From a phage: DNA of 64,000 nucleotides. Location: the sequence record NC_100371.1. One strand, written 5' to 3'. The notes beneath the pieces are model-generated. The model did no database searches and was not told the origin of the DNA. It saw only the letters and a list, made by a program, of their open reading frames with translations. Shown piece by piece: positions 1,259 to 61,730 of the stretch (its first letter is position 1; each line of letters starts with the position of its first letter). Made by a program: the position numbers and the translations under genes.

Positions 1259-1340
1259 TGTGGAATCTCCGATTTTATTTGAACAACATAAAGGAGACAC
1301 CATTTTAGCATCTCCCTCTGTAAATTACAACAGATATTTG

Positions 1341-2632: not shown

Positions 2633-2887
2633 TTAATGTTCAGGTTTTACAAAAACTACTTCATTAACAGTGCACCAGACAGAGTCTCCTTCATCATCTT
2701 TAAAGGTAAGGCACTGTGCTGAGTTTTCCAGCTCATCAATCTCTTCTTGTGATAAAGGGGCCCCTTCTTCCAGAAGGGCTTTTACCCGGGGATTCTCACA
2801 AAACTCTGCTTCATAAATTGCACCGACTGTGCAATCTTTAAAAGCTCGGTCATTTGCAACGCATTCTGGCTTCAAAGTGATTTTCAT
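2633..2887 (-). CDS. hypothetical small protein, paralog family A
   Basis: AAGGAGA RBS upstream; shares KP...AFKDCT...IY...KDDEGD pattern with 2297..2569. Confidence 0.5.
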   Translation of the reverse strand: MKITLKPECVANDRAFKDCTVGAIYEAEFCENPRVKALLEEGAPLSQEEIDELENSAQCLTFKDDEGDSVWCTVNEVVFVKPEH

Positions 2888-2962
2888 CTTGGAGGTCTCC
2901 TTAATTATTTGAAATCAACGCTCTGTTTGTGTGAAGCATCTTATATCTAATCTTACTTCTTG

Positions 2963-3334
2963 TCAATGGCTATTTTCAATCAGCCACACAGGGTCGAGGT
3001 AAATTTGTTGGCGTTTTGCCCAATGACAAACTTCATTGTACATCTGAATCTCTTTGTCTGTCAATTCACGAATAGGCTCATCTATACCCTCATTTTTGTG
3101 GTAATCCCAGTCGGCATCGATTTCCCACAACCATGACTTGTTGTCACCACGCTTACGCACACAGAAGTCACCGGGGCGGCCTGCCAGTGCATTTAAGAAC
3201 TCGTTCTCCGCTCGCTCCTGGAGAATACTGAGGAGCAAAACGTTGGAGCATGACTGTAAAATATGCTTCAGCTCGCAGTCATCAATCTCAACTTCAATAC
3301 GTTGCTTGACTGTGTGGGTACCTTTTACTAACAT
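2963..3334 (-). CDS. hypothetical protein
   Basis: ORF track 2963..3361; internal ATG at 3334 has a GAGGAGG RBS and avoids overlap with the upstream gene. Confidence 0.45.
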   Translation of the reverse strand: MLVKGTHTVKQRIEVEIDDCELKHILQSCSNVLLLSILQERAENEFLNALAGRPGDFCVRKRGDNKSWLWEIDADWDYHKNEGIDEPIRELTDKEIQMYNEVCHWAKRQQIYLDPVWLIENSH

Positions 3335-6873: not shown

Positions 6874-6931
6874 ATACAGTTCTCCTTAAAGGGGAGGCGG
6901 TTGTACTACCCCTCCCACTCTTGGTTAAACA

Positions 6932-20452: not shown

Positions 20453-20808
20453 TATTCTGCCTCCTCTTCTTTTTCTTCAGCATTAGTTTCAGTACCACCC
20501 CACTCTGGAGTTTCCACCTCGACAGTAAACTCACGCACTACACGGTAATTGCCCATGAAGCGCTCCACTTCTTCAAGGCTTATGGAGAGGCCATTGGCAA
20601 CCAAGTCTGCAGCACCCTTCTCTACCAGGTAGTCCAGATTGGCTTCCAAGGCTTCAGGCTCAAACCCTGTCAATGCAATCATATAACCTTCCCCTTCATC
20701 AGGGAGGGCAATACAGCCCAACTGATTTTCTTTAAAAAAGCAGTGACCATCACTATTGATTGGTTGCTCATTGCAGTAAATAGCTGCACGATAAGTAACT
20801 TTAGACAT
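20452..20808 (-). CDS. hypothetical protein (118 aa), acidic C-terminus
   Basis: Co-oriented ORF; C-terminal AEEKEEEAE tail. Confidence 0.45.
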   Translation of the reverse strand: MSKVTYRAAIYCNEQPINSDGHCFFKENQLGCIALPDEGEGYMIALTGFEPEALEANLDYLVEKGAADLVANGLSISLEEVERFMGNYRVVREFTVEVETPEWGGTETNAEEKEEEAE

Positions 20809-20820
20809 TGATAGGCCTCC

Positions 20821-21099
20821 TTAGGCAACTGTCATTTTACATTCTTGAAATTTTAGCACAAGACGGTGATTGTGTCTAGTGTCTAAAAAGATTTTTTCAA
20901 CCATCAGGCACACGGTATAACCGTCTGTCTTGTTGACAACAAAATCCCCAGGGTGAGGGAGAATGTCCCCAGGATTGGGGAAACATAACCCGCTCAAGAA
21001 GGCATCATCGGTGGTGGACTTAATGGATTTCCACACACTATCTGCCTGAACATTCTCACCAACATAATATACACTACCACATGACTTCATCATAGTCAA
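20821..21099 (-). CDS. hypothetical protein (92 aa)
   Basis: Co-oriented ORF. Confidence 0.4.
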   Translation of the reverse strand: MTMMKSCGSVYYVGENVQADSVWKSIKSTTDDAFLSGLCFPNPGDILPHPGDFVVNKTDGYTVCLMVEKIFLDTRHNHRLVLKFQECKMTVA

Positions 21100-28487: not shown

Positions 28488-28895
28488 ATGGATAATCTTG
28501 CAAGTGTGAACGTCGAAATTGTTAAACTAAAGTTCTTGGGCTTTCGAGACCCTAATTCTCTAACAGCTATACTGATGGATACCCACTTCACACCTGGGAA
28601 AGAGTACACTGCCTTCCGTTATATTTGTGGAGATCACGAATCGGCCTATAGTGTGAATACAAACCTCGGCGAGGGGTATTTCATCAAAGATATCACAGAT
28701 CACTTGTGGGGTATGTGGGAATTGGTGGAAGAAGAGAATAAATCCCTTCCCAAAGAGATTTGGGTGCACACCTTCCACACAGGTAAGTTCGGAGGTACGG
28801 AACATAAGTCTATCCACTATGAAGAAGAAAGTGCCATCAAACAACAAGCTGTGCTTGGTGGATCTGTAGAAAAATTTGTTAAATGCGAGGACTGA
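28488..28895 (+). CDS. hypothetical protein (135 aa)
   Basis: ORF track 28413..28895; ATG 28488 preferred (GAGGAG RBS, downstream of promoter). Confidence 0.5.
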   Translation: MDNLASVNVEIVKLKFLGFRDPNSLTAILMDTHFTPGKEYTAFRYICGDHESAYSVNTNLGEGYFIKDITDHLWGMWELVEEENKSLPKEIWVHTFHTGKFGGTEHKSIHYEEESAIKQQAVLGGSVEKFVKCED

Positions 28896-34785: not shown

Positions 34786-34833
34786 TGTGTTCTCCAGATA
34801 AGAAAACCGCCCCGTCAGGAGCGGTCAGATATA

Positions 34834-37907: not shown

Positions 37908-37926
37908 CACATTCTCCTGAGAAAAT

Positions 37927-37989
37927 TCCTTAAGGACTATTTTAACACTTTAGAGAACAAAATGCAAGAACGGCATCCTTACCGTTCTT
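37927..37989 (-). promoter_or_regulatory. terminator hairpin followed by extended -10 promoter-like motif
   Basis: Minus strand: hairpin AAGAACGG-N8-CCGTTCTT (37966-37989) then TTGCAT-N17-TGT-TAAAAT (-10 at 37939-37944) upstream of fibre gene start 37907. Confidence 0.4.
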
Positions 37990-37997
37990 ACCTTTGT

Positions 37998-42745: not shown

Positions 42746-44236
42746 TTAAATAGTTTGTTGGAAAGTTATATTACTTTCGTCTAGATCAAACACCTCAGTC
42801 ATGTTTGCAACAATATCGTTTGTGGTGTAAGCTTCATCAGAGGCCCCCACAGGTTTGACTTGAATTACAAGTCTGTTAAATCTGCCTATTGACACAGCAG
42901 CCGATGCAGCACCAACCAATTGGATATTGTACAATGTATCTGCAACATCCAGTCCGTTAACAACCTGCAAAAGAGCCTCTACAATGGCATCTTTTTCGGT
43001 TGTAGAAAGCGCAGCACCTGAGTAGGTAATTCTTACATCTAGGCGGTAGGTATTTGCCTTGGAGTAATAAATCCTTTCAGTCTGACCGTCTGATGTGGTA
43101 ATATCGTAGAAGATATTCCCATAAGTTCTGTTTGTGCAAGCTATGGTTTGATACAGCGCCTGACAGATATCCTCTGTTGCACCACCAAACACCACCACTT
43201 GAAACTTATAAGGTGGTATACCTTTCGCATCCGTTTTATCGGTGTTGTTAGAGAACACTCTTACTTTCTCAACACCCTTCACCTCGCTTACAGCGCTAAG
43301 GATTGCAGGACGGGTAGCTTTAGATGTCAACTGTTTAGTGCTGGAAGCTCTTAGGCGATACTCAGAGTCTTTCTCAACATCCCTGCCCTCATTGAATCTT
43401 TCTCGGTTGGTAAGCTTGATAAATCCACTGGGAGTAGGTGACATTGTTGTCACGGTTTCTGCCTCTCTTGACAGCTCACCCGCCTCGTTAGCGATAACAT
43501 CTAGGGTGATAGTTCTTTCCCCTACAATCGGGGATACTCTGAAATCTACCCTGCTATTAAGTCCAACTTGATCAAGATTCGAATTGTACCCTATCCACAA
43601 CGTCCCTGTCAACATATCTATCTGAATTAAATCATCATTCAGCAGGGTTGTATTATCGACAATGAATTGCTTAATCTCGCCGTAAAAGCTTGGCAAATCA
43701 GAAGAGTCCAGAGCCTTATCTGTTAAAACCAGACTTTTTGTTTTGATACTTCCGTCTGTCTGGTTGGTAATTTGAAAGTTGTATTTCCCAATTCTTAGGT
43801 CTGGAGCGTTTATTCTGTGAGCAATAAGATTTCCCGCCACCTGCACATCGTTGCTAAGAACAAAGTTGCCACTGTCCAGCGTATAAGTTTTGGAATCATA
43901 AATCATATTGTACGGCACAGTTGTATTGATTGTCAACTGGCAGGTACCTGATGATTTAGAACGGCCTCTTCGGTAAATACCCTGTCTTCCAAGAAGCTCA
44001 TCCAGGTAAATACCTTCTGCCCCATATAGCGTCTGTGATGCGTATACAGATGCTGCCATAAGAATAAGTTGATATTCTCGCTCGTTGAAAATAGTGGTCA
44101 GCTTATCTGCAACTGAGTTACTTTGTACGTTGAAGTTTTCGCCAAAAGCACGGATCAGGCTTTGCTTAGTTTCAACGATTAGGTCATTTAGGGTTGGTAT
44201 AACGAAACCAGCCTCTGTCAATCCATACTTAGCCAC
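42746..44236 (-). CDS. baseplate wedge protein, Baseplate_J-like (P2 gpJ / Mu gp47 family)
   Basis: 496 aa; N-terminal MAKYGLTEAGFVIPTLNDLIVETKQSLIRAFGENF typical of Baseplate_J proteins. Confidence 0.55.
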   Translation of the reverse strand: MAKYGLTEAGFVIPTLNDLIVETKQSLIRAFGENFNVQSNSVADKLTTIFNEREYQLILMAASVYASQTLYGAEGIYLDELLGRQGIYRRGRSKSSGTCQLTINTTVPYNMIYDSKTYTLDSGNFVLSNDVQVAGNLIAHRINAPDLRIGKYNFQITNQTDGSIKTKSLVLTDKALDSSDLPSFYGEIKQFIVDNTTLLNDDLIQIDMLTGTLWIGYNSNLDQVGLNSRVDFRVSPIVGERTITLDVIANEAGELSREAETVTTMSPTPSGFIKLTNRERFNEGRDVEKDSEYRLRASSTKQLTSKATRPAILSAVSEVKGVEKVRVFSNNTDKTDAKGIPPYKFQVVVFGGATEDICQALYQTIACTNRTYGNIFYDITTSDGQTERIYYSKANTYRLDVRITYSGAALSTTEKDAIVEALLQVVNGLDVADTLYNIQLVGAASAAVSIGRFNRLVIQVKPVGASDEAYTTNDIVANMTEVFDLDESNITFQQTI

Positions 44237-44269
44237 GTCACTCCTCCGGTATGAAAATCTCTACAAGGT

Positions 44270-44331
44270 ATTTTACCAAATTTTGTAACAATAGTCAATC
44301 TGAGCATAAAAATAAACCCCGCCGAAGCGGG
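44270..44331 (-). promoter_or_regulatory. intrinsic terminator (UUCG-loop hairpin) followed by extended -10 promoter
   Basis: Minus strand: CCCCGC-TTCG-GCGGGG (44316-44331) + U-rich tract, then TTGACT (44297-44292), 16-nt spacer, TGG-TAAAAT (-10 at 44275-44270). Confidence 0.55.
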
Positions 44332-44341
44332 GCTTTAAAGG

Positions 44342-47300
44342 TTAGTCGTGAGACTCGTTCCAAGGTCCCTGGAAGCTTGAGTTAGAACGACTAACGATCA
44401 CAGTGGGACAGGAGATTGTGACACCTGTCACGCTAGACGTTGACCACGGTGTGTAAATCTCGATAACAATGTCTATAGTTTGTTCACCCAGACCTGTTAT
44501 CCCTACCGCACACATGCCGTTGTTGTCGTTAAAATACTTCTTGCCAGCAAGGATCTGATGACCAGCTATCCATGCATTCAGCTGGGAGCTGGCAAGAGTA
44601 CCATTCAGTTTAAAGAAGAATGTTACGTTCTTACCCTGACCTGAAACGTTATCTACGTATCTCCACCTCCAACGGCAAACCCTTTGCTGGGAGTTATATA
44701 CTGGAGCACAATCTCCGTAAGTCCTGTGTGCAACGATTGCACCTTCGAACTGGTTAGCACGGATAACGGAAGCTTCTACACGTCCACGGAATGTACCTCC
44801 TGTTGCATCTATGGTCCCTCTAAAGCTACCGTTGTTGGCATAAACATCCCCACGGAAGGTACCACTGGTGGCGTTAACTGCCCCTGTGAAGTTACCTGCA
44901 CTAGCGTTAATGTTACCTTTCACCCACACATCCATAAACTGGGCGTGCCCGTTCTTGTTAATATACCAACCGTATTTGTGGTACCCATTGCCATCGTAGT
45001 TGTTTGACGAAATTTCTTGCGCGATCTTGGCAGAAGAGATCGTGCCGTTCTCTATAAAAGCGTCTTTCAAGAACGCTTGGTTGTTCTTGATTGCGAAAGC
45101 AAGGGTTGCTGTCCCATTGCCCGGGTTGTATACCGCAAAGTTGTTTGCGCTAACCATGAAATATGACTGAACTTGGCCTCCAGAGCCTTCCATGCCTAAC
45201 TGGATACCTGCCACATACTTATTCCCTGCGGAGTCTACCTGTATTTTTGTGCCCCATTGAGCATTTACTTTGCCCTCTAAGTCGGTCACAGCCTTAGATG
45301 TTGTAGCCACTGCAGCTCTGAGCTCTGACACATCCCCAACATCATCAATGATCTCCTGCTTAGCAACAGCAAGTTCTTGACGAATAGCTGACGCTGTGCC
45401 GTTAATAAGATCCACGGTTGCTTTGTTGGTATCGGAAATTGTAGCATCCAGAGCTGTCTTTGTGGAGGTCAGTTTACCATCTAAATCCTTAATCGCCTGT
45501 TTGTTGGTAGAAATCTCCCCACGTGCAGAGGTTATCTGCTCTGACAGTGCAGAGGTTTTCTGATTCAACAAATCGGTGGTGGCCTTGTTGGTATTGGCAA
45601 TCAAGGTATTGAGATCAGTTTTTGCGGTAGTTATCTTACCATCAAGGGTGGTATAGTTTTTAGATACCGTCGCGTTTGTCTGACTAATCTTTTGATCCAG
45701 GGTCTCAGAGGTCTTGTTCAAAAGATCCACTGTCGCTTTGTTGGTGCTCAGGATGCTTGCATCAAGTTCCGTTCTCTGGGTGTTGATCTTGCCATCCAGA
45801 GTTTTATCTCCGGCAAGGTATCCGCTCTCCACACCATCTATTTGTTCTACCAACTCCCCTTTGGCTGCAACCAATTTCTCGTCTAAAGCCTCTGTCTTTT
45901 TGTTCAGAAGATCAGTGGTTGCTTTATTGGTTGTCTCGATCAGGGATGCCAGTCTTCCACTTTCAGTGTTCAGATCGTTGGTGAACTTGTTCTGTGCAGC
46001 AACAAGTTTCCTATCCAGAGCTGTGATATTTCCATTGACATCCTCAAACTTCTGAGTTGTCTCTGTAACTACCGCACCTATCCTATCTCCAAGTTGTTGG
46101 AATGCCTCATCTACCCTTCCGTCCATGTACTTGTTAAGCTCTGTGACACGATTTTCAACCTCCTCGATAGAGGAATCTAAAGTGCTCATCAACTCTTTAT
46201 AAGTTTCTGTCTTTTTAAATTCAGCATCTATCTGAGGCATCAAATCTTCAATAGAGGTGTAGCAGCGTGCAGCGCATTCTACAAACTGAGAACTACCAAA
46301 AGCGTTTGTGGTTCGAATATACCAATAATAAATCTTATCGTTCTGCAGACCTTCAGATGTCCAAGTTGAACCAACACCCATACGGGTGGCTTTTGAAGTA
46401 ACGGTTGCATCACTTGTGTCCGGCAACCTTGTCATACCAGATGTCCAAAAATCATACTGGGTGCTTACACTTGCTAAGTCCCTGCTGTGCGGAATCAAGG
46501 TGATAGCAAAGTATCCCTGCTTAACTTCTACAGAAACAGGAGCTTCAGGTGCTTGAATGTTGAACTCGCAGTAGGCTTCTGGAGATACACCACCTTTATA
46601 AGATGTTGCAACCACGGTTGCTGTGTATGACCCTTTGGTCAATCCTTCTACGCGGACAAACTGCTCGACTGTTTGTGCTGTCCAAATAATCTCTCCGTTC
46701 TTTCTTACCTGCACAATATTTTGAGCATAAGTTCCAACGTTGTCCCAAGCCAAAACACCATGAGTTACTTCCCCAGCTTGAAGAACAGAGTATCTGAAGT
46801 TTTGCGGTTGAGCTACGCCGGACGGGGATATCGGAATATCCACATCTCCAGAATCCGGAAGTTGCCCTGTGGCATCATTCCACTCTTTAGCATCTTGACG
46901 GAGTTTTACCTTGACACCGCCCTTTTTGGTGAACTCCCATTCAAGAACCCTCATTTCTTGGCCCACTATACCAATACTTGGAAGGTCCATCGTAACGTAA
47001 CGCCCAGGCTTAAATTTAAAACCCCGCATATTGCAGGTTACTTCAATAATCCTGCCAGCTCTGGCACGTCTTAAGAATATTGCGGAAACACGCTGAGCCT
47101 GATAAGGACTGGTAACAAAACGATAATCTATATCAATTATCTTTCTTTCTCCGTCCTTCTCTACCCATTCAGGTACGAACACCGACGGGAAGTCTGTTTC
47201 AGAATACCCTTTGGTTGGACTGGTGAATCTTCCGGTTATTGTGTTTGATCTTTTGTCGAAGGAGGCTTCAGGATAGATCTTAACCTCACCGCAAACACAG

Positions 47301-48181
47301 TCCTCACTCAGTGTCATTGTTGCCGGGCCATAGTATGCACCTACCAGTAGACCATATTTGCCAGCCACATAGCTAAGGTCTGCACCACAAGCCTTCAGCA
47401 TCTCTGCCATAATACTTGCTGGTGCTTCGTCCATGTCGAACTCGCCATTAATGGTGTAACGGCGCTCACTGGTTCCGTCCGCGTTTTTTACAGCCTCGTC
47501 GCATATGTTGGCAGCTTCCTTGAAGGACTCCCAGTTGATGGTTTCGTCAGGACATTTAAGGTACGTTCTTAGATAGTCCAGAATCACCAAGGCAGCGTTA
47601 TTGGTATACATCTCTTTACTGATACGAGGATCATAACATTTTTTACCAACCTTGACAAGTGTAACGTTTGGCAACCCAAAAGGAAACTTGTTAGGGTCAA
47701 ACTTAAAGCTGGCACGTAGCCAACTGATACCTCTACCTATCATGTCTGGTGACCACGAAGGGCAGTGTGTTCCCATGAAAGGATCAGAGGTTTTCCTGTC
47801 GTTATGTAACTCCCACGATACCAAATCCCCATACGAGGAAATAGGATTACCGTCGATAAGTATATCTTCTATACCTTCCAAGGGATGATTGGCAAGAACA
47901 ATAGCACAATGAAGGGTTCTGTCCCTGTCCTGCTCCAAAAACGCAAGCAACCCAGATGTGCGTGTCTTCCCATACACTACAGAGCAAGGTGCAGCAGAAG
48001 ATCTGAGAAGTTTTTGTCTATCTTGCTGACTCCTGTAAGATTTGTTTCCTTCGAAAATCTTATCCAGGGTTCTGGTGGTAACAGTGTTCAGGCTGTCAGC
48101 CAGAGCTGCCTTGGATGCGTTCCAGTCATAGCTCGAAGATCTTGCAGAAGCAACGATGTTATCAATCATTGCAATTGGCAT
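44342..48181 (-). CDS. central tail fibre / host-specificity protein, lambda gpJ-like, with internal coiled-coil tandem-repeat insertion
   Basis: 1279 aa. FN3-like region (APEAPVSVEVKQGYFAITLIP ... YYWYIRTTNAFGSSQFVE) and C-terminal region (FMVSANNFAVYNPGNGTATLAF) resemble lambda J from memory; ~200-aa insertion with TNKAT[TV]DLLN-type repeats. Confidence 0.65.
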   Translation of the reverse strand: MPIAMIDNIVASARSSSYDWNASKAALADSLNTVTTRTLDKIFEGNKSYRSQQDRQKLLRSSAAPCSVVYGKTRTSGLLAFLEQDRDRTLHCAIVLANHPLEGIEDILIDGNPISSYGDLVSWELHNDRKTSDPFMGTHCPSWSPDMIGRGISWLRASFKFDPNKFPFGLPNVTLVKVGKKCYDPRISKEMYTNNAALVILDYLRTYLKCPDETINWESFKEAANICDEAVKNADGTSERRYTINGEFDMDEAPASIMAEMLKACGADLSYVAGKYGLLVGAYYGPATMTLSEDCVCGEVKIYPEASFDKRSNTITGRFTSPTKGYSETDFPSVFVPEWVEKDGERKIIDIDYRFVTSPYQAQRVSAIFLRRARAGRIIEVTCNMRGFKFKPGRYVTMDLPSIGIVGQEMRVLEWEFTKKGGVKVKLRQDAKEWNDATGQLPDSGDVDIPISPSGVAQPQNFRYSVLQAGEVTHGVLAWDNVGTYAQNIVQVRKNGEIIWTAQTVEQFVRVEGLTKGSYTATVVATSYKGGVSPEAYCEFNIQAPEAPVSVEVKQGYFAITLIPHSRDLASVSTQYDFWTSGMTRLPDTSDATVTSKATRMGVGSTWTSEGLQNDKIYYWYIRTTNAFGSSQFVECAARCYTSIEDLMPQIDAEFKKTETYKELMSTLDSSIEEVENRVTELNKYMDGRVDEAFQQLGDRIGAVVTETTQKFEDVNGNITALDRKLVAAQNKFTNDLNTESGRLASLIETTNKATTDLLNKKTEALDEKLVAAKGELVEQIDGVESGYLAGDKTLDGKINTQRTELDASILSTNKATVDLLNKTSETLDQKISQTNATVSKNYTTLDGKITTAKTDLNTLIANTNKATTDLLNQKTSALSEQITSARGEISTNKQAIKDLDGKLTSTKTALDATISDTNKATVDLINGTASAIRQELAVAKQEIIDDVGDVSELRAAVATTSKAVTDLEGKVNAQWGTKIQVDSAGNKYVAGIQLGMEGSGGQVQSYFMVSANNFAVYNPGNGTATLAFAIKNNQAFLKDAFIENGTISSAKIAQEISSNNYDGNGYHKYGWYINKNGHAQFMDVWVKGNINASAGNFTGAVNATSGTFRGDVYANNGSFRGTIDATGGTFRGRVEASVIRANQFEGAIVAHRTYGDCAPVYNSQQRVCRWRWRYVDNVSGQGKNVTFFFKLNGTLASSQLNAWIAGHQILAGKKYFNDNNGMCAVGITGLGEQTIDIVIEIYTPWSTSSVTGVTISCPTVIVSRSNSSFQGPWNESHD
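45380..46010 (-). repeat. imperfect tandem repeats (~160 bp unit, about 4 copies) inside the gpJ-like gene
   Basis: Recurrent DNA segments near 45400, 45560, 45720 and 45905 (e.g. gatccac[tg]gt[tc]gctttgttgg) encoding repeated TNKATxDLLN units. Confidence 0.55.
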
Positions 48182-48618
48182 TAATACCTCCAGACATCAA
48201 CAACGATAGAATCTTTCATGTCGAACATAAAGATCCCTTTATCACCTTTCGCCCAAATCTGGTTGTTCCAGAACACACCAGCGGTTAGCCCGTTCAGACC
48301 TTTGAAAATAACAATATCACCACGCTGAACCTGTTTAGGAGTATCCAGTCGAGTCAAAAAGAGATCAAAAATAGTAGGCAGGTGTGTGGTTTTGAAACGA
48401 AGCATGCACCATCTCTTGCTTTCCAACTCTGTTTTATATGTTCCTTCAAAGTTAGAAATAAAATCTGTTCCGTATTGGGCATCAACACACTTAGCCGCAA
48501 AGGTGCAGCAATCGTGGAATCCCCATTCAAACGGGACGGTGGCTTCTTCGTCAAACACTTTCCACAATCTTTCTTGCCAGTCTACTAAACGAGGGTGTGT
48601 GCTCATTAAACCTCCCAA
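48181..48618 (-). CDS. tail assembly protein, NlpC/P60-like (lambda gpK-like position)
   Basis: 145 aa directly upstream of gpJ-like gene (start/stop overlap); HDCCTF and GDIVIF resemble a possibly degenerate NlpC/P60 fold. Confidence 0.35.
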   Translation of the reverse strand: MGGLMSTHPRLVDWQERLWKVFDEEATVPFEWGFHDCCTFAAKCVDAQYGTDFISNFEGTYKTELESKRWCMLRFKTTHLPTIFDLFLTRLDTPKQVQRGDIVIFKGLNGLTAGVFWNNQIWAKGDKGIFMFDMKDSIVVDVWRY

Positions 48619-49172
48619 ATGATCGGGCGGCTTGCCACCTGATCCACATATTTAAAAAATCTGTCATTATCGTTTCTTGAGCTATGGCTTTCCTCTGTGT
48701 ATCGATAAGGAAAACCTCTTAACCAGCTGTTGAAGATGGAAGAGATGGATATAGACAAAGCACTATTCTCCCCTGTCTGAATAGCCATGTCTGTTATAAG
48801 GCCGTCAAACAAGCCATTAGTTGTAACAGGTAAACCATTCTCCATAGCGGTGATATATAACGTGGCACGGCAACCAGAATACTCCGTCTTCAGCAGATCA
48901 CCTACATACTTGGGATCAAACCCGTTCAATGTTGCTACCACAGATCCGAAGTTGGTGGCATCTTTCTCAGACACAGCAGTCAATGTTGCTGATCCACCTA
49001 TTCCTATAAAATGTTGCCCCTCAATCACCACAACACCAGTGCCTGAGCACACCCTGACAGTTCCTGTTGGCAGCTCTAGCTTTGCAGCAATTAAGATCTC
49101 AACACTATCAAGCTCTAGCTTTTCAAGAAATAAATTATCTAATGGCGCTCTTATCATCTTAGAAATCCTCAA
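48606..49172 (-). CDS. putative minor tail protein (lambda gpL-like position)
   Basis: 188 aa; synteny upstream of K-like and J-like genes. Confidence 0.3.
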   Translation of the reverse strand: MRISKMIRAPLDNLFLEKLELDSVEILIAAKLELPTGTVRVCSGTGVVVIEGQHFIGIGGSATLTAVSEKDATNFGSVVATLNGFDPKYVGDLLKTEYSGCRATLYITAMENGLPVTTNGLFDGLITDMAIQTGENSALSISISSIFNSWLRGFPYRYTEESHSSRNDNDRFFKYVDQVASRPIIWEV

Positions 49173-49749
49173 AGAAGTTGATAACTATATTGTCACCTTT
49201 CTGCATAGCATCAACCTTTTGCTTAATCTTATAGAGATCCCTGATATGAAATCTACCCTTCGGAGATTGAGTTATTATCTTCATAGTATCTCCTGCGGCA
49301 ATAGGTTTCCTAAGTCTTGGTGATATGTTTATAACAGCTGCCCCCACACCATCACTTCGCACTGAGGATGTTACAACTTTCAACTCATCATTGACAGATA
49401 TTTTATCCCCAGCCCTGACTATATCTCTGTTCGGTTCCCAACCAACCGTCTTCAAAAAATCGTCATTACCAGTTGGTCCTAGAGCGATTGGCTCATTGGA
49501 AGTAACTGAATGACCATAGGCCTTGATAAGAAAAATGTTTCCATCTTTGTAAACCTGATCAACAAAACTTTTAAGCTCCAATAGCTGGGACTCACTTATA
49601 TTGGAAACCGTCAAAGTTCCTTTCCAGTTGGGCGTGGCATAGGTTACTTTTTGCGTCTTACCTGTAAACGGGCTTTTAAACGTAACAATATCTGCCAGCA
49701 ACTCCAATCTAATATCTGGAAGATATCTAGGTCTTTCCCATAAAAACAT
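49159..49749 (-). CDS. putative tail protein (196 aa)
   Basis: First gene after a terminator/promoter junction; GGAGG RBS. Confidence 0.4.
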   Translation of the reverse strand: MFLWERPRYLPDIRLELLADIVTFKSPFTGKTQKVTYATPNWKGTLTVSNISESQLLELKSFVDQVYKDGNIFLIKAYGHSVTSNEPIALGPTGNDDFLKTVGWEPNRDIVRAGDKISVNDELKVVTSSVRSDGVGAAVINISPRLRKPIAAGDTMKIITQSPKGRFHIRDLYKIKQKVDAMQKGDNIVINFFEDF

Positions 49750-49780
49750 TATGCCTCCAGGTTAAACAATTATGATAGTT

Positions 49781-49840
49781 ATTTTACCAGATTTTAAGTT
49801 AATACGCAATACAAACAAAAAGCCCTCGCCGAAGCGAGGG
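49781..49840 (-). promoter_or_regulatory. intrinsic terminator (UUCG-loop hairpin) followed by extended -10 promoter-like motif
   Basis: Minus strand: CCCTCGC-TTCG-GCGAGGG (49823-49840) + CUUUUUGUUUG, then TTGCGT (49809-49804), 17-nt spacer, TGG-TAAAAT (-10 at 49786-49781). Confidence 0.5.
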
Positions 49841-49854
49841 CAATACTTTATACT

Positions 49855-50187
49855 TTAAAGTGCTTCCAAGGTAGATACTGATGGGTCGAACATGTTCAAC
49901 CTTATCGGATCTACAATTTTTCCGCTTTTAGAGATGATATTTTCTGCATCTTCGTCCAGAGCCAGAACGTTGACATAAAACAATTTACTTTTCTCGCAAA
50001 CTGGGTAGACAACCATGTTGCCAAACTCATCCTCGGCCTCATAAGTGTCTTCAGTTTCTGTGTAAATGAACCCGACAACCTCTACAAGAAGGGTGTTTTG
50101 CAACACCTCATTCTCGTAAAAGCCGATTTCGTCCATGAAACCGTTAAAATCCTCCCTACCAGTAAACCCAAGGGTAAAAGTATTCAT
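49855..50187 (-). CDS. hypothetical protein (110 aa), possible fibre chaperone
   Basis: Start overlaps the stop of the 1479-aa fibre gene; acidic. Confidence 0.4.
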   Translation of the reverse strand: MNTFTLGFTGREDFNGFMDEIGFYENEVLQNTLLVEVVGFIYTETEDTYEAEDEFGNMVVYPVCEKSKLFYVNVLALDEDAENIISKSGKIVDPIRLNMFDPSVSTLEAL

Positions 50188-53100
50188 TATTCAACACTCT
50201 CCATCATAAGCTGGGTGTCGGTCAATGCAGAGTTCCAAACTCTTACATCTTTAATATGACCAAACAAATGTCTTTCACCTGTCGCCGTTTGACCTCCGAG
50301 ACGGATGAGAGCGCCTCCTGCCAGGAATTCCCAAGAAGATTGCGTTTCCGTACTCACCAATCCGTTAGCAAAAGAGCAGGTTTTACCGTCATCTTTTATC
50401 CTGAACCCAATTTTCAATTTACGTGTTTTAGCCATCTCATAGACACGTCTGTTTGAACCGCCAATATCACAATATGGATAACCATCTTCTGCAATATTTG
50501 CTGCAGAGCCAAATCCCATGATAAATGCAGCACCGTATTGGTGGCCCTCTGTATCAATAACTCTAGGAGCTGCGTTAGGAGCTTTTCCCCAACCTCTCCA
50601 GTTGGCATCCACCGTAGCGGCGATGGTGAACGGTCTAGGTGCTAAATTATCAGTCATTGGGAATTTACAAAGGTCTGCTGCCCTAGTCACTGGTGAAGAC
50701 CCTGTAGGGATAAACGAGGACTCACAAGATCCTAACTCGAACTGAGGTATTGCGACGTCAACCCAATCCCCTACGGCATGTTGAGAACCATCCGGTGGGG
50801 CAATCTGGAACTGGCACCCAATATTCATGTCAGAGTCCACTGCCTCAAACGTAGCAACAACTCTTATCCAAGCAGGTCCGGCTGTTTGCCATCTCTCAGC
50901 TTTTACTTTAATTCTCCCAGCTGCAACACCTGTTGTTTTAACTTCAAGTGTTGACAGGTTAACATAGGCATCACCTTGGAATACTGTGGTGGATCCGTTA
51001 TACATGTCAAATCTTACACGCAGTCTCTGGTGAGCTTTACCACCTCTTGCAATAATAGACCCAGTACAAAATTTCTCAGCACCTGTTACATCTGCACCAC
51101 GGGTGGCTGGAACTGTAGCCAGGTTTAACGCTGTTGTTTCTACACCGGATACGTTGCTTACTGTAAATCTTGCACCTTTTGTGCCGTTGGTGTTTGTTAC
51201 AGTGTTACCGACCGTAATCTGTGACTGGGCTCCCCATTTGCTCGGATCTTCACTGTTAAGCATCAGATTTGTCCTTTGACCTTCAATGAGCAGACCATCT
51301 CTTTCGAAACGTGGTTGGTTTGCCTGTGCAACAGCCATGACACCGCGCTTAGTGAAATAGGTTGCGGTAGAAGGTCTGGAGAAGATCATCTCCCCCTCAC
51401 CTAACACAGGTTTCAGGTTAGAGGTTAAAGGTAGCCACAGATCTGGCATAACTGGGGCAGTTGTACTTTCTGGGAAGCTAGTTCTCTTCCAAGGGCTCCA
51501 GTTCATTCCACTGCCAGTGTTATTATAATACCTTTCCCACGTTCCACCAAGATACATTTTATATATCTGGACACACCCTGTACCCTCGTTGGCAGAGTTT
51601 CTAAGCACGATAAGCGTACCAGCCATCTGCTGTCCTGGTGGGTAGTGTCTCTCCGCTGTGGCGTTGGCATTTGCCTCTTGATGGTAAATACCTTCGCGAT
51701 CCGCTTTGTAATCGTTAAGGTCGCTAGTTCCCAACCCTTGTCCACGGTGCTGAATAACTTTGTTCCACGCTCTGTGGTTACCCTGCTCTATGGAACGGGT
51801 GTACAGCTGATCTAAACGACCTGCCATCTGGAAAGCATAGTTTCCAGAAAATGCCACAGACAACCCACCAACAACCATTGAACCTTCAGGCCCGTTGACG
51901 TTGCCAGCCAGTATTTTGGACGGATTATTATTTCCGAACTGGTTGTTCCAGTCTGCACCTGTGTGGCATACAAAACCACCTGGGGCCGAGAAAGTACCGT
52001 CTTTGTTGAAATTGTAGAATCTGTGAGCTGTGCCAACAACATCGCGAACAATAACTTGACCCGCTTCTGGAGTAGATCTGAACTCTGCCTGACCTTTGAG
52101 ACCAGCACCATTGCCGCATTTAGAGGTAAATGTGCCGTTAGTCAGATCCTCTGTCCCATCTGATGCACACTGGAATCCTGCATTAGAGAATAACGCCTTT
52201 CTAGGACTGCTGTAGCACAAATAGTCAATACCGTCTGCCCATAGCTCGACTTTCGGCATGTTCATTTTGCTCATCACTGCATAGCGTTCAGCAGTGCCTA
52301 TATAGTGCCACTGTGTGCCGCCGCCAGTGTAGAACCCAGAAGTACCTTTGAAGTCAACAATAGGTCTGGTGTTTGTATTGTTATCTCCAAGAACAGCAAG
52401 ATTCAAGTCTGCCGACTGGAGAGGTGAAACGAACTTAACACCGTCCTGATTGTTTGTTACAGAGCCGACCTGATAATCTTGCTCTCTGGTAAACACTTCG
52501 ACAACATTTCTACTTGCGTATATGCTAACAGGGAAAGCACGAGCCTCTACATAGAAAGCAACATACTCTTGTTTACCCCTTGTTGGAGCAACCATCCCAA
52601 GAATTGCTTTTTCATTCTGGTAGAAATTTACTACCCCGTAGAAAGAGTCTCCTCTGTCTGTCCAACCACCAGTTCTATAGTGACACTGCAAGGTGGCGCA
52701 GTTCATAGGGTCACCGCCAGATGAAGATCTGGTAACTATGGTAATATCAGTGCCAGTTGCTGGAGCATAGTACGGATCTGTTCTGACGATGATCGGGTAG
52801 TATTTCCCATCTTCCATTCCTGCGGTTCTTGGCAGTGTTAAGAAGTCTTTTACACCTGCTGCTATAGGAACTTTGAACAGATTCTGAGCATCTGCTAAAG
52901 TTGTAGCCCCAGTGCCGCCTGCGGCTTGAGGTAAAGGTTCCCACTTGGCCTTCCGGTTGTTATACACACCCCATTCCAGAGTGCCGTTACCGGATTCATC
53001 CATCCCTCCATCCCAAACGACCATTTTTGCGGCTTTCTTGGATCCCCAGAACCCTCTTTCTGCTCCTGAACTACGGATCCATTCCCCAAGTCCCCAGTTT

Positions 53101-54626
53101 GTCAGCTGACCAGTGAGATCCCCAACCTGCATGTATTTAGGACAATCTAATACGCCATCCTCACGGAATCCTAAATATCTATGAGTTTCAGATCCTTTTG
53201 CACCTTTGTGGAGGTGAATTGTTAACCAAGCCTTATTATCGTTTCTTACCTCGGAGTAGATCCTATACCCATGCTCAAGAACACCGTCGGTGTCATATTT
53301 ATCCCCATGGAGAATACCTGAAGCAGATTTAACATCTCCTGAGTATTGAGCCAAGTAAAGGTGCCCGAAAGCAGGGGAGTTGTTTTTACCAAGGCCGATA
53401 TGAGATCTGAAGGTGTCATCATTCCGAGGTCTGACCATCGGCTGCCATGCAGTCCACTGGTTTGTGTTGGCCTGATAGGTTCTCAAATACCAAACATCTA
53501 CGTTAGAGAATGGATAGTATTCCTGACGACAGCCAGTGCCACCGTTAGCATTGTTCTGCCAAACAATCAGGTGACCAGCACCAGAACCTGCAGGGTAACC
53601 ATTTGCCTCAGTTGCATTAGCGGTTATCGGCTGGTAGTATATGCCGTCCTGATTACCAGTCAAGTTATTGATATTGAAATTTGCCTCAAGGGCTGCACGT
53701 TGCTTATAGAAAGCACCGATATTGATACGGACTCCAGCGGCATCTCTAGCTCCTGTACCGCCTTGCTCTATAGCAAGAGGTTGCCACGAGGCTGTTTGTT
53801 GGTTCCACATGCCCCAACGGCCTGCTGCATCAAGCTGCAAATACCCTGCCGTGTTTAAATCATCTCCGGCACGGATAACTGTTCTTGTTGGGTTGTTTGC
53901 CTCTAGGCGTTTAAATTCATCACGAAGTGCTATTCTTTTTGTTGTTGCCACACCGTTGGTCACTGCAATGGTGTACATGGCTCCGGAGGTAGCGCCACGG
54001 AAAATACCATCAACAGTTGTAGTATCACGACGAGATACCACACCGTTCAGAAATTTTTCACCAGCTGCTTCAGAAGGGTAGTTAGTAGTTCTTCCCTCTT
54101 CAATAACTGCAGGACCCACAAAGTTGACAAGGTGAATAACATCGCCTACAGTATGCACTGTACCAAAATCTACCCGCTGTGCAAGTGCTTTAGCATCGTT
54201 GGCTGTCTGAACAGTAACATCCATTACATCCTGGACAGACTGCCCTTCGGCTGTCATGATCATAGATGCGCCAATGGTAGATTCCAGCTCCTCCCTTAAG
54301 GACGGATCTGTATATACCATCCATGCAGCGTCAGTAATCCCCCCGTCGGAGTACGGTGAAGACAGTGCAGGAACAGTGTGTGGAAATTCGCCTTTCCAAC
54401 GCAGGTAGAGGTCTTCCTCTTCGAAGTAGGCAAAATCCATTGGGCCGTTTAACTTACCACCTTCCTTAAAGGAGATTACATGAGAAACAGTCCCATCCAC
54501 ATGGACAACATCGCCAATTTTTACACGACGGGTCAGGTCTGGTTGTTGAACAACCAGGTAATCATCCTCTGTCACTGCGGTAGTGGCAGGAAGAGATTCA
54601 ATTCTGACAACTTTAATATCAGCCAT
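50187..54626 (-). CDS. large tail fibre / receptor-binding protein with N-terminal anchor domain and C-terminal LamG/ConA-like lectin domain
   Basis: 1479 aa. N-terminal ~100 aa shared with 57263..57931; repeated W-x-PL-x(3-5)-GGTGA motifs; C-terminal LFGHIKDVRVWNSALTDTQL resembles the LamG-type signature. Confidence 0.6.
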   Translation of the reverse strand: MADIKVVRIESLPATTAVTEDDYLVVQQPDLTRRVKIGDVVHVDGTVSHVISFKEGGKLNGPMDFAYFEEEDLYLRWKGEFPHTVPALSSPYSDGGITDAAWMVYTDPSLREELESTIGASMIMTAEGQSVQDVMDVTVQTANDAKALAQRVDFGTVHTVGDVIHLVNFVGPAVIEEGRTTNYPSEAAGEKFLNGVVSRRDTTTVDGIFRGATSGAMYTIAVTNGVATTKRIALRDEFKRLEANNPTRTVIRAGDDLNTAGYLQLDAAGRWGMWNQQTASWQPLAIEQGGTGARDAAGVRINIGAFYKQRAALEANFNINNLTGNQDGIYYQPITANATEANGYPAGSGAGHLIVWQNNANGGTGCRQEYYPFSNVDVWYLRTYQANTNQWTAWQPMVRPRNDDTFRSHIGLGKNNSPAFGHLYLAQYSGDVKSASGILHGDKYDTDGVLEHGYRIYSEVRNDNKAWLTIHLHKGAKGSETHRYLGFREDGVLDCPKYMQVGDLTGQLTNWGLGEWIRSSGAERGFWGSKKAAKMVVWDGGMDESGNGTLEWGVYNNRKAKWEPLPQAAGGTGATTLADAQNLFKVPIAAGVKDFLTLPRTAGMEDGKYYPIIVRTDPYYAPATGTDITIVTRSSSGGDPMNCATLQCHYRTGGWTDRGDSFYGVVNFYQNEKAILGMVAPTRGKQEYVAFYVEARAFPVSIYASRNVVEVFTREQDYQVGSVTNNQDGVKFVSPLQSADLNLAVLGDNNTNTRPIVDFKGTSGFYTGGGTQWHYIGTAERYAVMSKMNMPKVELWADGIDYLCYSSPRKALFSNAGFQCASDGTEDLTNGTFTSKCGNGAGLKGQAEFRSTPEAGQVIVRDVVGTAHRFYNFNKDGTFSAPGGFVCHTGADWNNQFGNNNPSKILAGNVNGPEGSMVVGGLSVAFSGNYAFQMAGRLDQLYTRSIEQGNHRAWNKVIQHRGQGLGTSDLNDYKADREGIYHQEANANATAERHYPPGQQMAGTLIVLRNSANEGTGCVQIYKMYLGGTWERYYNNTGSGMNWSPWKRTSFPESTTAPVMPDLWLPLTSNLKPVLGEGEMIFSRPSTATYFTKRGVMAVAQANQPRFERDGLLIEGQRTNLMLNSEDPSKWGAQSQITVGNTVTNTNGTKGARFTVSNVSGVETTALNLATVPATRGADVTGAEKFCTGSIIARGGKAHQRLRVRFDMYNGSTTVFQGDAYVNLSTLEVKTTGVAAGRIKVKAERWQTAGPAWIRVVATFEAVDSDMNIGCQFQIAPPDGSQHAVGDWVDVAIPQFELGSCESSFIPTGSSPVTRAADLCKFPMTDNLAPRPFTIAATVDANWRGWGKAPNAAPRVIDTEGHQYGAAFIMGFGSAANIAEDGYPYCDIGGSNRRVYEMAKTRKLKIGFRIKDDGKTCSFANGLVSTETQSSWEFLAGGALIRLGGQTATGERHLFGHIKDVRVWNSALTDTQLMMESVE

Positions 54627-54640
54627 TCTTTCTCCTGAAA

Positions 54641-54657
54641 GGGGGCAAACAGCCCCC
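54641..54657 (-). terminator. intergenic hairpin (weak terminator/attenuator) between 865-aa and 1479-aa genes
   Basis: GGGGGC-AAACA-GCCCCC with only a short U tract on the minus-strand RNA, immediately before the RBS AGGAGAAAG of the next gene. Confidence 0.35.
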
Positions 54658-54663
54658 TATATG

Positions 54664-57261
54664 TTAAAGGTACAATCCACGGTATTGAGCATAAAGACCC
54701 AGACCGCGAAGGATTTCGCCAGAGTGATAGCCAACCGGATCAGAAACTGCCCAGCAGCCGTTTAAAATATTATCCCCGTTAATGAAGTGGTGCTTTTGCA
54801 GTAACTTCACACAGGCCTCTACAACAATATCTATTTGAGGTATTGTCTCTGAATACCCGCAAAGACCTAGCCAGCAGCAACCTGCAAGCCATTCACCTAC
54901 CACCCACATCCTGTCACCTCTGTCTTGATAAGAGTATCCACCAGAGGTGTTAAAGTCTGTAGGCAAATTTCCTGAATGGGATGACTGGAATCTGTTGAGG
55001 AACCATGCCCATTTCTGGCAGAACAGGAATAGTCTTTCATCAACAGGCTCTTTATGTTTCTTGAGCTCATATATTGTGCGGCACGCAGCAACAAAAGATC
55101 TTGACTGGAGTTTAGAGTTATCTACCATCTCCCACCAACCAGTCAACCCTTCATTACCTCTCTGCCATACATAACGTGAGGCAACTGGACCCTCTGTCTT
55201 AAATGTATTGTTATACCAGACTTGAGAGTCATACAGAAAGCCTATTGTATTTGACAATCTATGGCGGTCTATGTTTTCTGCGCCCATGCAGTAGACTGCT
55301 GGGTATTGCATACCAGGGTAGGGCCAATTTGGCCTTTCCTCTAAGAGATAATTTTCCTTATCTATCACCTTTCCGGCAGGGAACACACCCGGCGTGTGCC
55401 TGTATGCACCTTGCTTGTAGTTTCTGACATAACAATCGCCAACCTTAGCGGTCGATTCTGTCTTGCTTGCCATCCATACACTAAACCAAATTAGGTAAGC
55501 ATCTCTATCTGCAACATAAAATTGCGGTAGCGTGTTGACGCAATACAGATCAAACAAGCCATTGCCTATCTGCCTGTCGCTCAGACTGAAATCTACAGAG
55601 GTGATCCCCTTGGTGTTAGCAAAGAAAGGTTTAATCTCCTCTTCGGTGTGATGAGGTTGTGTAGGGTCTAGTTTAAAATCTCCCAGAGTAAGAGTTTCTG
55701 TTATCCATTGTCCATTAGTGGCATATAGATCAGCATACCATAACCAACGGTCTTTGTCAAGAAATTTGACCCTTACCATCTCATCATCTGATCGATAAGT
55801 CACTGAGTTTAAAGAAATCTCTCTTCCAAAATTGAAAGTTACTTTGCCTTTTACTATATTGCAACGGGTGAAGTTGTCAGAGTGGTTGTAAATGTCGGTA
55901 TCATACTGCATACTAACACTAGCGCCACCGCTTACGGCAATGTTTTCCTCTTTTGGCAAGAGATATGGGTTACCGTCTTTACCAACCACCTCTACAAAAT
56001 CAGTAACCTTGGCAACTGTTTCTGTTACCTCTGCCCCTCCAAAAGGGACACCTATTCTGTACTGTTTTTTGTTATTGTTGCCATCATTAAGGATGAAATG
56101 TGGCTGGAACAGAACCCCTTCTCCTCCGAAATTCATAACAATTTCAGCATCTCTGCCTATTTTGTATGTAGTCCCTTTTTGGATTATTTCGCAAGGCTGG
56201 CGTGCGTTCATTCTAAAATTGATATATCCGTCACTATCCCTACTTATGACAGGTACTGTTCCTGCAACTAGACAAGTGCCATCTGTGAACGGGGCCTTAA
56301 TCAACGTGGTCTTTCTGAACAGCTTGTCGTAGGCATTTATATCACTAAAATTAAGCAACTTATTGTAAGACTGCTTAAACGCGGTGTAATACTTTTCCTC
56401 ACCTGTCAGGGTGTAGAGTTGATAACAAGCGTCACACCACATCTCTTCCCCATCTAACTCTGGGGCTTGATTGTCTGCAACCACGTTTATAGGATTTACA
56501 ATTACAGGGGATCCAGCAGGTATCACCGATCCGCCCTGCTCTTGAGGCAATCTCACACAATAGGTAACCTTGTGGTTGCCTGTAACACCCTTATCTTGCA
56601 GTTGGATTGTGCCGAACTCTGCAGACGTATGACCACTGTCGGCTATGCTACCGTTGGCCCAATAGCGGTTACCATCCCATGCTATATACCACTCAACCCA
56701 CCAACTTAATCCGGAAGTTGTCCAATTAGGATTAGCATCTGTGCCGCCGTAAACATCAGAGTCTACAGTGTTTCTTCCTAAAACACCGTTATACGCCTGA
56801 AAAGCCTTGTCCAAGTATTCTCCCCATGTCGGGGATCCTGCTGGTATTTTTCCTCTACCTTTGTTAAAAGACACAACCACATCTTTAAACCCACCATGTG
56901 ATGGAACTCCATCTGTGGATAACGGGTAGTGGGACAATCTTTGCATTTTACTTTCTACTGCATATACGCCCAGAAGATGACTGTTGTAGGCTTCCCAAGC
57001 CTCTTTGGCCCTGTCTAGATAAAAATCGCTTTTTGATGCCCTGTATGCCTCAATGTATCCCAGAATCAACACAGCTTGGGACTCATGCATTGCCCAATCA
57101 TTATTTATCTTACTCCCTGACCAACCTGACGCTATAAGTCCATCCTGGTTTACCAGTTTGTTCTGTGTAGGGAGATTGGTAATACCTGTGTTGTTATCGA
57201 GGCACTTCCTGTGCCCCTCGATCATCTGAAATACGTTATCAATGTTGTGTTGAATACGCAT
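54664..57261 (-). CDS. virion structural protein, putative tailspike / glycan-degrading enzyme
   Basis: 865 aa in fibre cluster; aromatic-rich sequence faintly reminiscent of alpha/alpha-toroid glycosidases. Confidence 0.35.
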   Translation of the reverse strand: MRIQHNIDNVFQMIEGHRKCLDNNTGITNLPTQNKLVNQDGLIASGWSGSKINNDWAMHESQAVLILGYIEAYRASKSDFYLDRAKEAWEAYNSHLLGVYAVESKMQRLSHYPLSTDGVPSHGGFKDVVVSFNKGRGKIPAGSPTWGEYLDKAFQAYNGVLGRNTVDSDVYGGTDANPNWTTSGLSWWVEWYIAWDGNRYWANGSIADSGHTSAEFGTIQLQDKGVTGNHKVTYCVRLPQEQGGSVIPAGSPVIVNPINVVADNQAPELDGEEMWCDACYQLYTLTGEEKYYTAFKQSYNKLLNFSDINAYDKLFRKTTLIKAPFTDGTCLVAGTVPVISRDSDGYINFRMNARQPCEIIQKGTTYKIGRDAEIVMNFGGEGVLFQPHFILNDGNNNKKQYRIGVPFGGAEVTETVAKVTDFVEVVGKDGNPYLLPKEENIAVSGGASVSMQYDTDIYNHSDNFTRCNIVKGKVTFNFGREISLNSVTYRSDDEMVRVKFLDKDRWLWYADLYATNGQWITETLTLGDFKLDPTQPHHTEEEIKPFFANTKGITSVDFSLSDRQIGNGLFDLYCVNTLPQFYVADRDAYLIWFSVWMASKTESTAKVGDCYVRNYKQGAYRHTPGVFPAGKVIDKENYLLEERPNWPYPGMQYPAVYCMGAENIDRHRLSNTIGFLYDSQVWYNNTFKTEGPVASRYVWQRGNEGLTGWWEMVDNSKLQSRSFVAACRTIYELKKHKEPVDERLFLFCQKWAWFLNRFQSSHSGNLPTDFNTSGGYSYQDRGDRMWVVGEWLAGCCWLGLCGYSETIPQIDIVVEACVKLLQKHHFINGDNILNGCWAVSDPVGYHSGEILRGLGLYAQYRGLYL

Positions 57262-61651: not shown

Positions 61652-61701
61652 CTAGATATTGTATCATAAAATAGCCGTTTTTACAACACCGATAAAATAA
61701 A

Positions 61702-61717
61702 GGGGGCCGGAGCCCCC
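61702..61717 (-). terminator. intrinsic terminator-like hairpin after the tape-measure gene
   Basis: GGGGGC-N4-GCCCCC followed by UUUAUUUUAU on the minus-strand RNA. Confidence 0.5.
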
Positions 61718-61730
61718 TATGTGCCGTTTA

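Follow-up and report, generated by a model that had tools for sequence, protein, structure and literature searches.

A putative intrinsic terminator and extended -10 promoter between the gpJ-like and Baseplate_J-like genes of an rV5-like phage, and related junctions in the tail modules of Vequintavirinae

The gpJ-like and Baseplate_J-like genes of the phage analysed here (sequence record NC_100371.1; the window is the whole stretch of 64,000 nucleotides) are separated by a gap of 105 nt on the minus strand, at window positions 44237-44341. More than 110 genomes of Vequintavirus (rV5-like) E. coli myophages share this region with 95-100% identity. At this locus, E. coli Vequintavirus also matches, at 95-100% identity, 17 or 18 GenBank entries that are titled 'Campylobacter phage' (MG0656xx, listed host C. 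jejuni); judged by these sequences, the host assignments look doubtful. The 1279-aa ORF upstream of the gap matched the Pfam families Phage_Tail_Tip (2.4e-38) and Ig_J_second (1.4e-30), and the 496-aa ORF downstream matched Baseplate_J (4e-9), in agreement with the neighbours named by the first-pass annotation of this DNA. The 496-aa gene is the first of a conserved baseplate/tail-fibre operon, and its GTG start was confirmed by the N-termini M-A-x-x-Y-G, which align in other lineages. The features of the locus are as follows.

44342-48181, minus strand: gpJ-like tail-tip/lateral tail-fibre protein, 1279 aa, homologue of rV5 gp37 (ORF list, Pfam, rV5 annotation)
44344-44342, minus strand: TAA stop codon of the 1279-aa ORF (sequence)
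44335-44314, minus strand: terminator hairpin AAGCCCCGC-TTCG-GCGGGGTTT (sequence, RNA folding, GenBank terminator annotations)
directly 3' of the hairpin, minus strand: tail ATTTTTAT (sequence)
44306-44316, minus strand: T-tract TTTATTTTTAT, the U-rich terminator tail (sequence)
44298-44293, minus strand: -35 hexamer TTGACT, matching TTGACA in five of six positions (sequence)
44278-44269, minus strand: extended -10 element TGG-TAAAAT-A, with TGn at 44278-44276, the hexamer at 44275-44270 and the conserved A at 44269
44262-44264, minus strand: predicted transcription start, placed by the usual sigma70 geometry 6-8 nt past the -10
44247-44241, minus strand: Shine-Dalgarno sequence GGAGGAG, 4 nt ahead of the GTG and likewise placed in all lineages (sequence)
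44236, minus strand: GTG start of the Baseplate_J-like gene (sequence)
42746-44236, minus strand: Baseplate_J-like wedge protein, 496 aa, GTG start, homologue of rV5 gp36

The hairpin begins 6 nt past the TAA and consists of a 9-bp stem, including six G-C pairs, closed by a cUUCGg tetraloop; the UUCG hairpin that had been reported on the minus strand behind the gpJ-like stop was thereby located. Its predicted RNA folding energy was -16.5 kcal/mol (z -2.98 against dinucleotide shuffles), and only 2 of 200 shuffled sequences were as stable. A G+C-rich hairpin with a U-tract, lying downstream of a stop codon, is the sequence arrangement of an intrinsic terminator, and a terminator is annotated here in the GenBank records of phages HdK5, EdH4, Murica and Gotham, the last of which carries a promoter annotation as well. 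Because an interruption breaks the U-tract (UUUAUUUUUA), termination may be only partial; in the predicted fold, the first three U's of the tract are paired with an upstream AAA. An Rfam scan of 36-56 kb at E<=1 gave a single, sub-threshold match, in which the hairpin aligned to the terminator end of RsmY with 19.8 bits (gathering threshold 57), and therefore no known RNA family was recognized in this interval.

Beyond the T-tract, the -35 and -10 hexamers are separated by 17 nt, made up of N14 and TGG. The first-pass annotation had given this element as TTGACT-N16-TGG-TAAAAT; both hexamers and the TGG were found in place, and the spacer was corrected to N14 plus TGG from N16 plus TGG. The hexamer TAAAAT agrees with TATAAT in five of six positions, including the A at position 2 and the T at position 6. 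From the usual sigma70 geometry, the 5'UTR of the Baseplate_J transcript is predicted to be about 26-28 nt long, and it would contain the ribosome-binding site that had been noted as GGAGGA ahead of a gene start at 44236, both of which our reading confirmed. In E. coli promoters, A/T-rich UP elements lie upstream of the -35. The T-tract, at about -43 to -53 of the predicted promoter, could double as such an UP-like element.

This promoter has been predicted before. The rV5 genome paper (Kropinski et al. 2013, Virol J 10:76, PMC3606486) lists 33 sigma70-like promoters, 11 of them with an extended -10, and its Additional file 4/Table S4 gives P036 as TATGCTCAGATTGACTATTGTTACAAAATTTGGTAAAATACCTTGT at rV5 28613-28658 (-), upstream of gene 36. 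The promoter sequence at 44.3 kb in the window is identical to P036, which appears twice in that table, once among the sigma70-like promoters and once among the "putative late promoters". The same table includes P040 and P030, with the motif TggTAaAAtA, which correspond to the 49.8-kb and 37.9-kb sites of the window, and the authors compared the late motif to the T4 late consensus TATAAATA. The promoter table has no terminator at the 44.3-kb junction, and neither conservation across genera nor a repeat relationship of two junctions is reported in that paper. The observation at 44.3 kb and its interpretation are therefore already known as published computational predictions; what is new here is the enrichment of the composite motif, its conservation across Vequintavirinae and the homologous repeats that flank a tail-tip cassette. 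Our searches of the literature on Vequintavirus, Vequintavirinae and rV5 late promoters found no TSS or RNA-seq study for the subfamily, and a search with the literal motif returned unrelated primer matches only. The paper on the Certrevirus phage CB7 describes an early sigma70-like promoter class only, and not the TGnTAAAAT motif.

The first-pass annotation had also pointed to TGG-TAAAAT at 49.8 kb and TGT-TAAAAT at 37.9 kb; both are present, as TGGTAAAAT at 49781-49789 and TGTTAAAAT at 37939-37947, within two further junctions.

49750-49854, minus strand: 49.8-kb junction (rV5 t041 and P040), with a hairpin at 49841-49822, TTGCGT at 49809-49804 and TGG-TAAAAT-A at 49789-49780
37911-37997, minus strand: 37.9-kb junction (rV5 P030), with a hairpin at 37991-37964, TTGCAT at 37967-37962 and TGT-TAAAAT-A at 37947-37938

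The 37.9-kb junction stands upstream of a 348-aa tail-fibre gene. We rejected it as a homologue of the 44.3- and 49.8-kb junctions, since it was not alignable with them beyond the motif. Upstream of the 49.8-kb junction lies a 1479-aa protein (50187-54626, minus strand) in which a Tail_spike_N domain (TSP1/Gp66 N-terminal) was recognized. This protein is the counterpart of rV5 gp41, a tail fibre, and not a tape-measure protein. It is far more variable among close relatives (89% in locus L088) than its neighbours (96-100%).

Generic sigma70-like matches were not enriched between 36 and 55 kb, where 38 were counted as compared with 31.7 +/- 5.9 in shuffled sequence. Likeness to the sigma70 consensus alone is therefore weak evidence, and the case rests on the extended motif, its position and its conservation. 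The search for TGnTAAAAT (TGNTAAAAT), which had been suggested as a check, was run on the window and gave 10 matches as compared with 3.7 +/- 2.0 expected; all ten lie on the minus strand and five or six of them are intragenic. The exact 10-mer TGNTAAAATA occurs three times, once in each of the 44.3-, 49.8- and 37.9-kb junctions. The composite TTG-N17-TGnTAAAAT was found four times, each time in an intergenic position, against 0.05 +/- 0.22 expected and a maximum of one in any shuffle. All three junctions have TTG at the -35 with the 17-nt spacing, and each promoter directly follows a hairpin and precedes a Shine-Dalgarno sequence and start codon by 29-33 nt. Between 36 and 55 kb, these three hairpins exceed in strength all other terminator-like hairpins of the minus strand. 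The proposal of a shared class of internal promoters in the tail module is supported, at the computational level, by this enrichment and positioning and by the conservation described below.

Several other sites in the window carry the motif or a hairpin. The fourth composite match (1302-1330, minus strand; TTGTAA...TGCTAAAAT) falls between genes of the early/middle region, close to rV5 genes 210/211, and has no entry in the rV5 promoter table. A promoter-like extended -10 site at 20850-20880 on the minus strand, TAGACA-N17-(TGC)TAAAAT, located about 41 nt before the start of a gene whose end is at 20808 (rV5 ~5465), is also missing from that table. The gap at 61652-61730 (minus strand), downstream of a 729-aa gene (61731-63920) that corresponds to rV5 gp49 (tape measure), contains the hairpin GGGGGCTCCGGCCCCC and a T-tract, followed by GTGTTGTAAAAACGG (rV5 'P048'). 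A second candidate in this gap, TGATACAATA at 61657-61666, overlaps the first ATG of the next ORF, whose true start may be at a more downstream position. In rV5 itself, an exact TGATAAAATA occurs at 56322-56331 on the minus strand (6322-6331 of locus L086), within the annotated overlap of gp064 and gp063 and 19 nt ahead of an in-frame-looking ATG with a Shine-Dalgarno sequence; it could be an unlisted internal promoter, or the start of gp063 could be mis-annotated. The late-module gaps at 34786-34833 and 54627-54663 (minus strand) have a G+C-rich hairpin and a T-tract and no promoter motif, with a start codon within about 15-20 nt; not every module terminator is paired with a restart signal.

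To assess conservation, we compared the regions upstream of the Baseplate_J orthologue in Seu621 (Mydovirus), CR8 (Certrevirus), 4L372D (Plateaulakevirus), Schickermooser (Phapecoctavirus) and IMG/VR contigs. A hairpin and T-tract precede the Baseplate_J orthologue in all sampled Vequintavirinae lineages, whose protein identities range from 100% to 50%. The stem sequences at this orthologous site are unrelated between lineages and the T-rich tail is kept in all of them; locus L009 shows a loop variant, TTAG, with an intact stem. After the T-tract each lineage has TG[G/A]TAAAAT, usually followed by A, 33-37 nt ahead of the start codon. In an alignment of nine lineages with a mean column identity of 42%, TG.TAAAAT was the only invariant block. 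Its variable base is the 'n' of the sigma70 TGn, which is G or A at orthologous sites and also T or C at paralogous ones. Stems, spacer and UTR diverge across the lineages, and the -35 is often lost.

A footprint of the same kind was seen in a comparison with the lineage at 80% protein identity (hereafter the 80% lineage). The -35 was kept in 6 of 6 positions and the TGn, -10 and trailing A in 10 of 10, as compared with 5 of 14 positions in the spacer and 10 of 32 in the 5'UTR. The 37.9-kb site is kept in this lineage as well, with the n position altered (TGCTAAAATA). Vequintavirus and the 80% lineage have TTGACT at the -35, and Mydovirus-like genomes have TTGCAA; Certrevirus, Seunavirus and two uncultivated lineages show T-tract sequence in place of a -35 but retain the -10. 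Across the nine lineage representatives (about 193 kb of tail-module DNA), 15 of the 17 exact motifs on the coding strand were located 20-41 nt upstream of a Shine-Dalgarno sequence and start codon; on the opposite strand there were two motifs, neither of them near a start. Plateaulakevirus (Aeromonas, 42% identity) lacks the motif ahead of its Baseplate_J gene, and in Phapecoctavirus (32% identity) there is no intergenic gap at the Baseplate_J position. The class is therefore not found beyond Vequintavirinae.

Taken together, these data suggest that the 44.3-kb gap probably combines an intrinsic terminator with a sigma70 extended -10 promoter behind it. We infer termination and initiation at 44.3 kb, reading by the host sigma70 holoenzyme, and the timing of expression. 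A Rho-independent terminator, formed by the cUUCGg hairpin and the U-tract, would end at least part of the transcript of the gpJ-like tail-tip cassette, and the sigma70-type promoter TTGACT-N17[..TGG]-TAAAAT-A would restart transcription about 27 nt ahead of the Baseplate_J GTG and drive the conserved baseplate-wedge/tail-fibre operon. The promoter would be a member of a structural-module class with the core TGnTAAAATA (the published rV5 motif TggTAaAAtA), in which the -35 may be dispensable owing to the TG dinucleotide. Such a pairing of terminator and promoter could let each tail sub-module set its own transcript level.

A contact with sigma70 region 3 has as its signature a TG placed one base ahead of the -10 hexamer. 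Three features accord with known sigma70 rules: the TG is invariant, the 'n' is free, and the -35, although kept by the E. coli phages at a distance of 17 bp, can be dispensed with in other lineages. The sites resemble the TGn promoters of E. coli sigma70 in the TG one base 5' of the -10, in the A at position 2 and T at position 6, in the variable -35 and in the 17-bp spacer where a -35 is present. They differ from them in that the hexamer is fixed as TAAAAT with a trailing A, not TATAAT, and recognition by sigma70 is what we would expect from the likeness. With a near-consensus -35 and an extended -10, strong activity would be predicted from the start of infection, which is odd for baseplate genes unless something delays it.

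An alternative hypothesis, which we consider unlikely but the best of the rivals, is that the TGnTAAAATA sites are dedicated late promoters, read only after a phage protein has reprogrammed the host RNAP. The factor could be a sigma-like or sigma-appropriating protein, or an anti-sigma factor acting on region 4 that silences the -35-dependent early promoters while sparing those with an extended -10. The likeness to sigma70 promoters would then give only a part of the picture. The motif is confined to the structural (late) unit, unlike the early class (TTGACA-N17-TATAAT-like), and in rV5 the hexamer TAAAAT occurs in 5 of 8 late-motif sites as compared with 1 of 31 other predicted promoters (Fisher p 5e-4). 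This confinement to the late, minus-strand unit hints at a reader more specific than plain sigma70. The loss of the -35 in several genera and the strict invariance of TAAAAT and the trailing A across genera, with no drift to the stronger TATAAT at any site of the class, are also what this hypothesis would predict, and rV5 encodes dozens of small early function-unassigned proteins together with one annotated 'transcriptional regulator'. On the other hand, the invariant TG bears the region 3 signature of sigma70, and the TTG at the -35, 17 bp away in the E. coli phages and kept 6/6 in the 80% lineage, is hard to explain without sigma70 region 4.

The likeness to T4 late promoters (TATAAATA; gp55/gp33 with the gp45 clamp) that the rV5 authors saw (PMC3606486) lies in a -10-only, A/T-rich element upstream of structural genes. 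The core G-TAAAATA, however, matches TATAAATA in only 5 of 8 positions, is preceded by the conserved TG, and is accompanied by a -35 in the E. coli phages. At the level of annotation, no gene for a sigma factor or for a gp55- or gp33-like protein is found in the complete rV5 record; the authors reported none either (PMC3606486), and a gp45 homologue is likewise neither reported nor annotated. Neither the 5/8 core nor the annotation, in which gp55 and gp33 are missing, fits a late promoter system of the T4 type. A different timing logic is offered by other phages. T4 AsiA and gp39 of the Thermus phage P23-45 disable sigma region 4; P23-45 has extended -10 middle/late promoters, and AsiA-resistant extended -10 promoters are part of T4 biology. 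By analogy only, a region-4-disabling factor, hypothetical in rV5-like phages, might silence the -35-dependent early promoters and spare the TGn ones.

A second rival, which we regard as improbable, is that the main role of the hairpin is to stabilise the 3' end of a long polycistronic late transcript or to form a processing barrier on it, with a minor promoter and with the baseplate operon expressed mostly by read-through. The interrupted U-tract with its three predicted paired U's, the co-orientation of the structural genes on both sides, and the late-module gaps that have a hairpin and no motif, such as 34786-34833 and 54627-54663, are in line with read-through. However, the retention of a T-rich tail behind the hairpin in every lineage, despite unrelated stems, is a hallmark of intrinsic terminators and not of simple stabilisers, and no part of the gap is better conserved than the promoter core, which would be unexpected if read-through sufficed. 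That the promoter is a functionless chance match to the consensus in an A/T-rich spacer, as the unenriched generic matches and the intragenic copies of TGnTAAAAT might allow, is hardly credible and effectively refuted by the composite motif (4 against 0.05), by the footprint in the 80% lineage, by the retention of the motif at the orthologous site down to 50% protein identity amid unalignable surroundings, and by its specificity of strand and position (15/17).

The preferred terminator-promoter reading gains a further aspect from the relationship between the 44.3- and 49.8-kb junctions. Both gaps (44237-44341 and 49750-49854, minus strand) are exactly 105 nt long and are direct repeats of each other; their whole-length alignment scored 24 as compared with 3.7 +/- 2.1 in the null (z 9.7), and none of 500 shuffles reached this score. 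The two junctions bracket a four-gene cassette.

44342-49749, minus strand: siphovirus-type tail-tip cassette, gp40-gp37-like, encoding a Dit-like protein (196 aa), a 188-aa protein, a DUF6950 protein (145 aa) and the gpJ-like protein (1279 aa) (Pfam)

The rV5 record notes that the homologues of this cassette are similar to tail proteins of siphovirus PY54. In tblastn searches of 16 loci, the cassette proteins were present in Vequintavirus proper only, and the 80% lineage has a single junction and no tail-tip cassette. The gene upstream of the junction differs between lineages, being the gpJ-like gene in Vequintavirus, a Collar/Phage_fiber tail fibre in the 80% lineage, a Peptidase_S74 tail fibre in Mydovirus and a 177-aa protein with no assigned function in Certrevirus. 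The GC and skew profile between 36 and 56 kb showed no compositional break at the cassette borders, and therefore gives no support for a recent foreign origin.

A comparable arrangement was found in Mydovirus. The Klebsiella phage Seu621 (locus L003) has two homologous terminator-promoter cassettes, at 5855-6053 and 6882-6991 (z 13.2), which bracket its L-shaped tail-fibre gene (Peptidase_S74). A related contig (L035) is without this tail-fibre gene and has a single junction at 2860-3000, the 5' side of which corresponds to copy A of Seu621 (z 39.7) and the 3' side to copy B (z 20.7), with the switch near the -10 and the 5'UTR. As judged from these alignments, the L035 junction is a chimera of the two Seu621 copies, the product that recombination between the repeats would be expected to give. 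For the 80% lineage, we asked in the same way whether its single junction is a chimera of both Vequintavirus junctions; this was not supported, as the junction resembles the 44.3-kb copy throughout. An indel breakpoint inside the terminator-promoter cassette is thus clear in the Mydovirus-like pair (Seu621/L035) and was not seen for the Vequintavirus tail-tip cassette. Because the terminator-promoter cassette is repeated on both sides, it may provide homology for the gain and loss of receptor-binding modules.

Composite terminator/promoter cassettes, the PeSLs, have been described in T4-like phages (Arbiol et al. 2010, PMC2839356; Comeau et al. 2014, PMC4122927). The junctions described here resemble them as small units of stem-loop and promoter repeated around variable gene modules: each 105-nt unit combines a hairpin, a T-tract, a -35 and an extended -10, and homologous copies flank variable modules. 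In PeSLs the indel breakpoints between related genomes lie inside the cassettes, a point for which two cases were examined here. They differ in that PeSLs carry early promoters and are located in hyperplastic regions full of small ORFs, whereas the present cassettes belong to another phage subfamily, lie in the structural module of Vequintavirus with the late-region motif, carry the promoter class of that module, and flank receptor-binding and tail-tip modules.

As a single feature, the 44.3-kb junction is of little weight, being a textbook terminator-promoter pair at a site that the rV5 paper predicted exactly. The remaining interest lies in two suggestions, the conservation of the TGnTAAAATA class and the PeSL-like use of cassettes around receptor-binding modules. 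It is conceivable, although we think it rather doubtful, that TGnTAAAATA marks a Vequintavirinae-wide late regulon read by host RNAP modified by a phage factor unrelated to gp55/gp33, and that the cassettes are portable recombination linkers that move receptor-binding modules between phages; if true, this would be the late-gene counterpart of the PeSLs of T4-like phages. The conservation of TGnTAAAATA throughout the subfamily, with no known late-transcription factor, bears on how these phages may time their late genes. Wide use is made of rV5-like phages in collections for phage therapy and biocontrol of E. coli, and a conserved promoter and terminator for each tail sub-module would help the engineering and swapping of receptor-binding modules. 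Finally, with repeated cassettes around tail-fibre modules, recombination may offer these phages a simple route to the evolution of host range.
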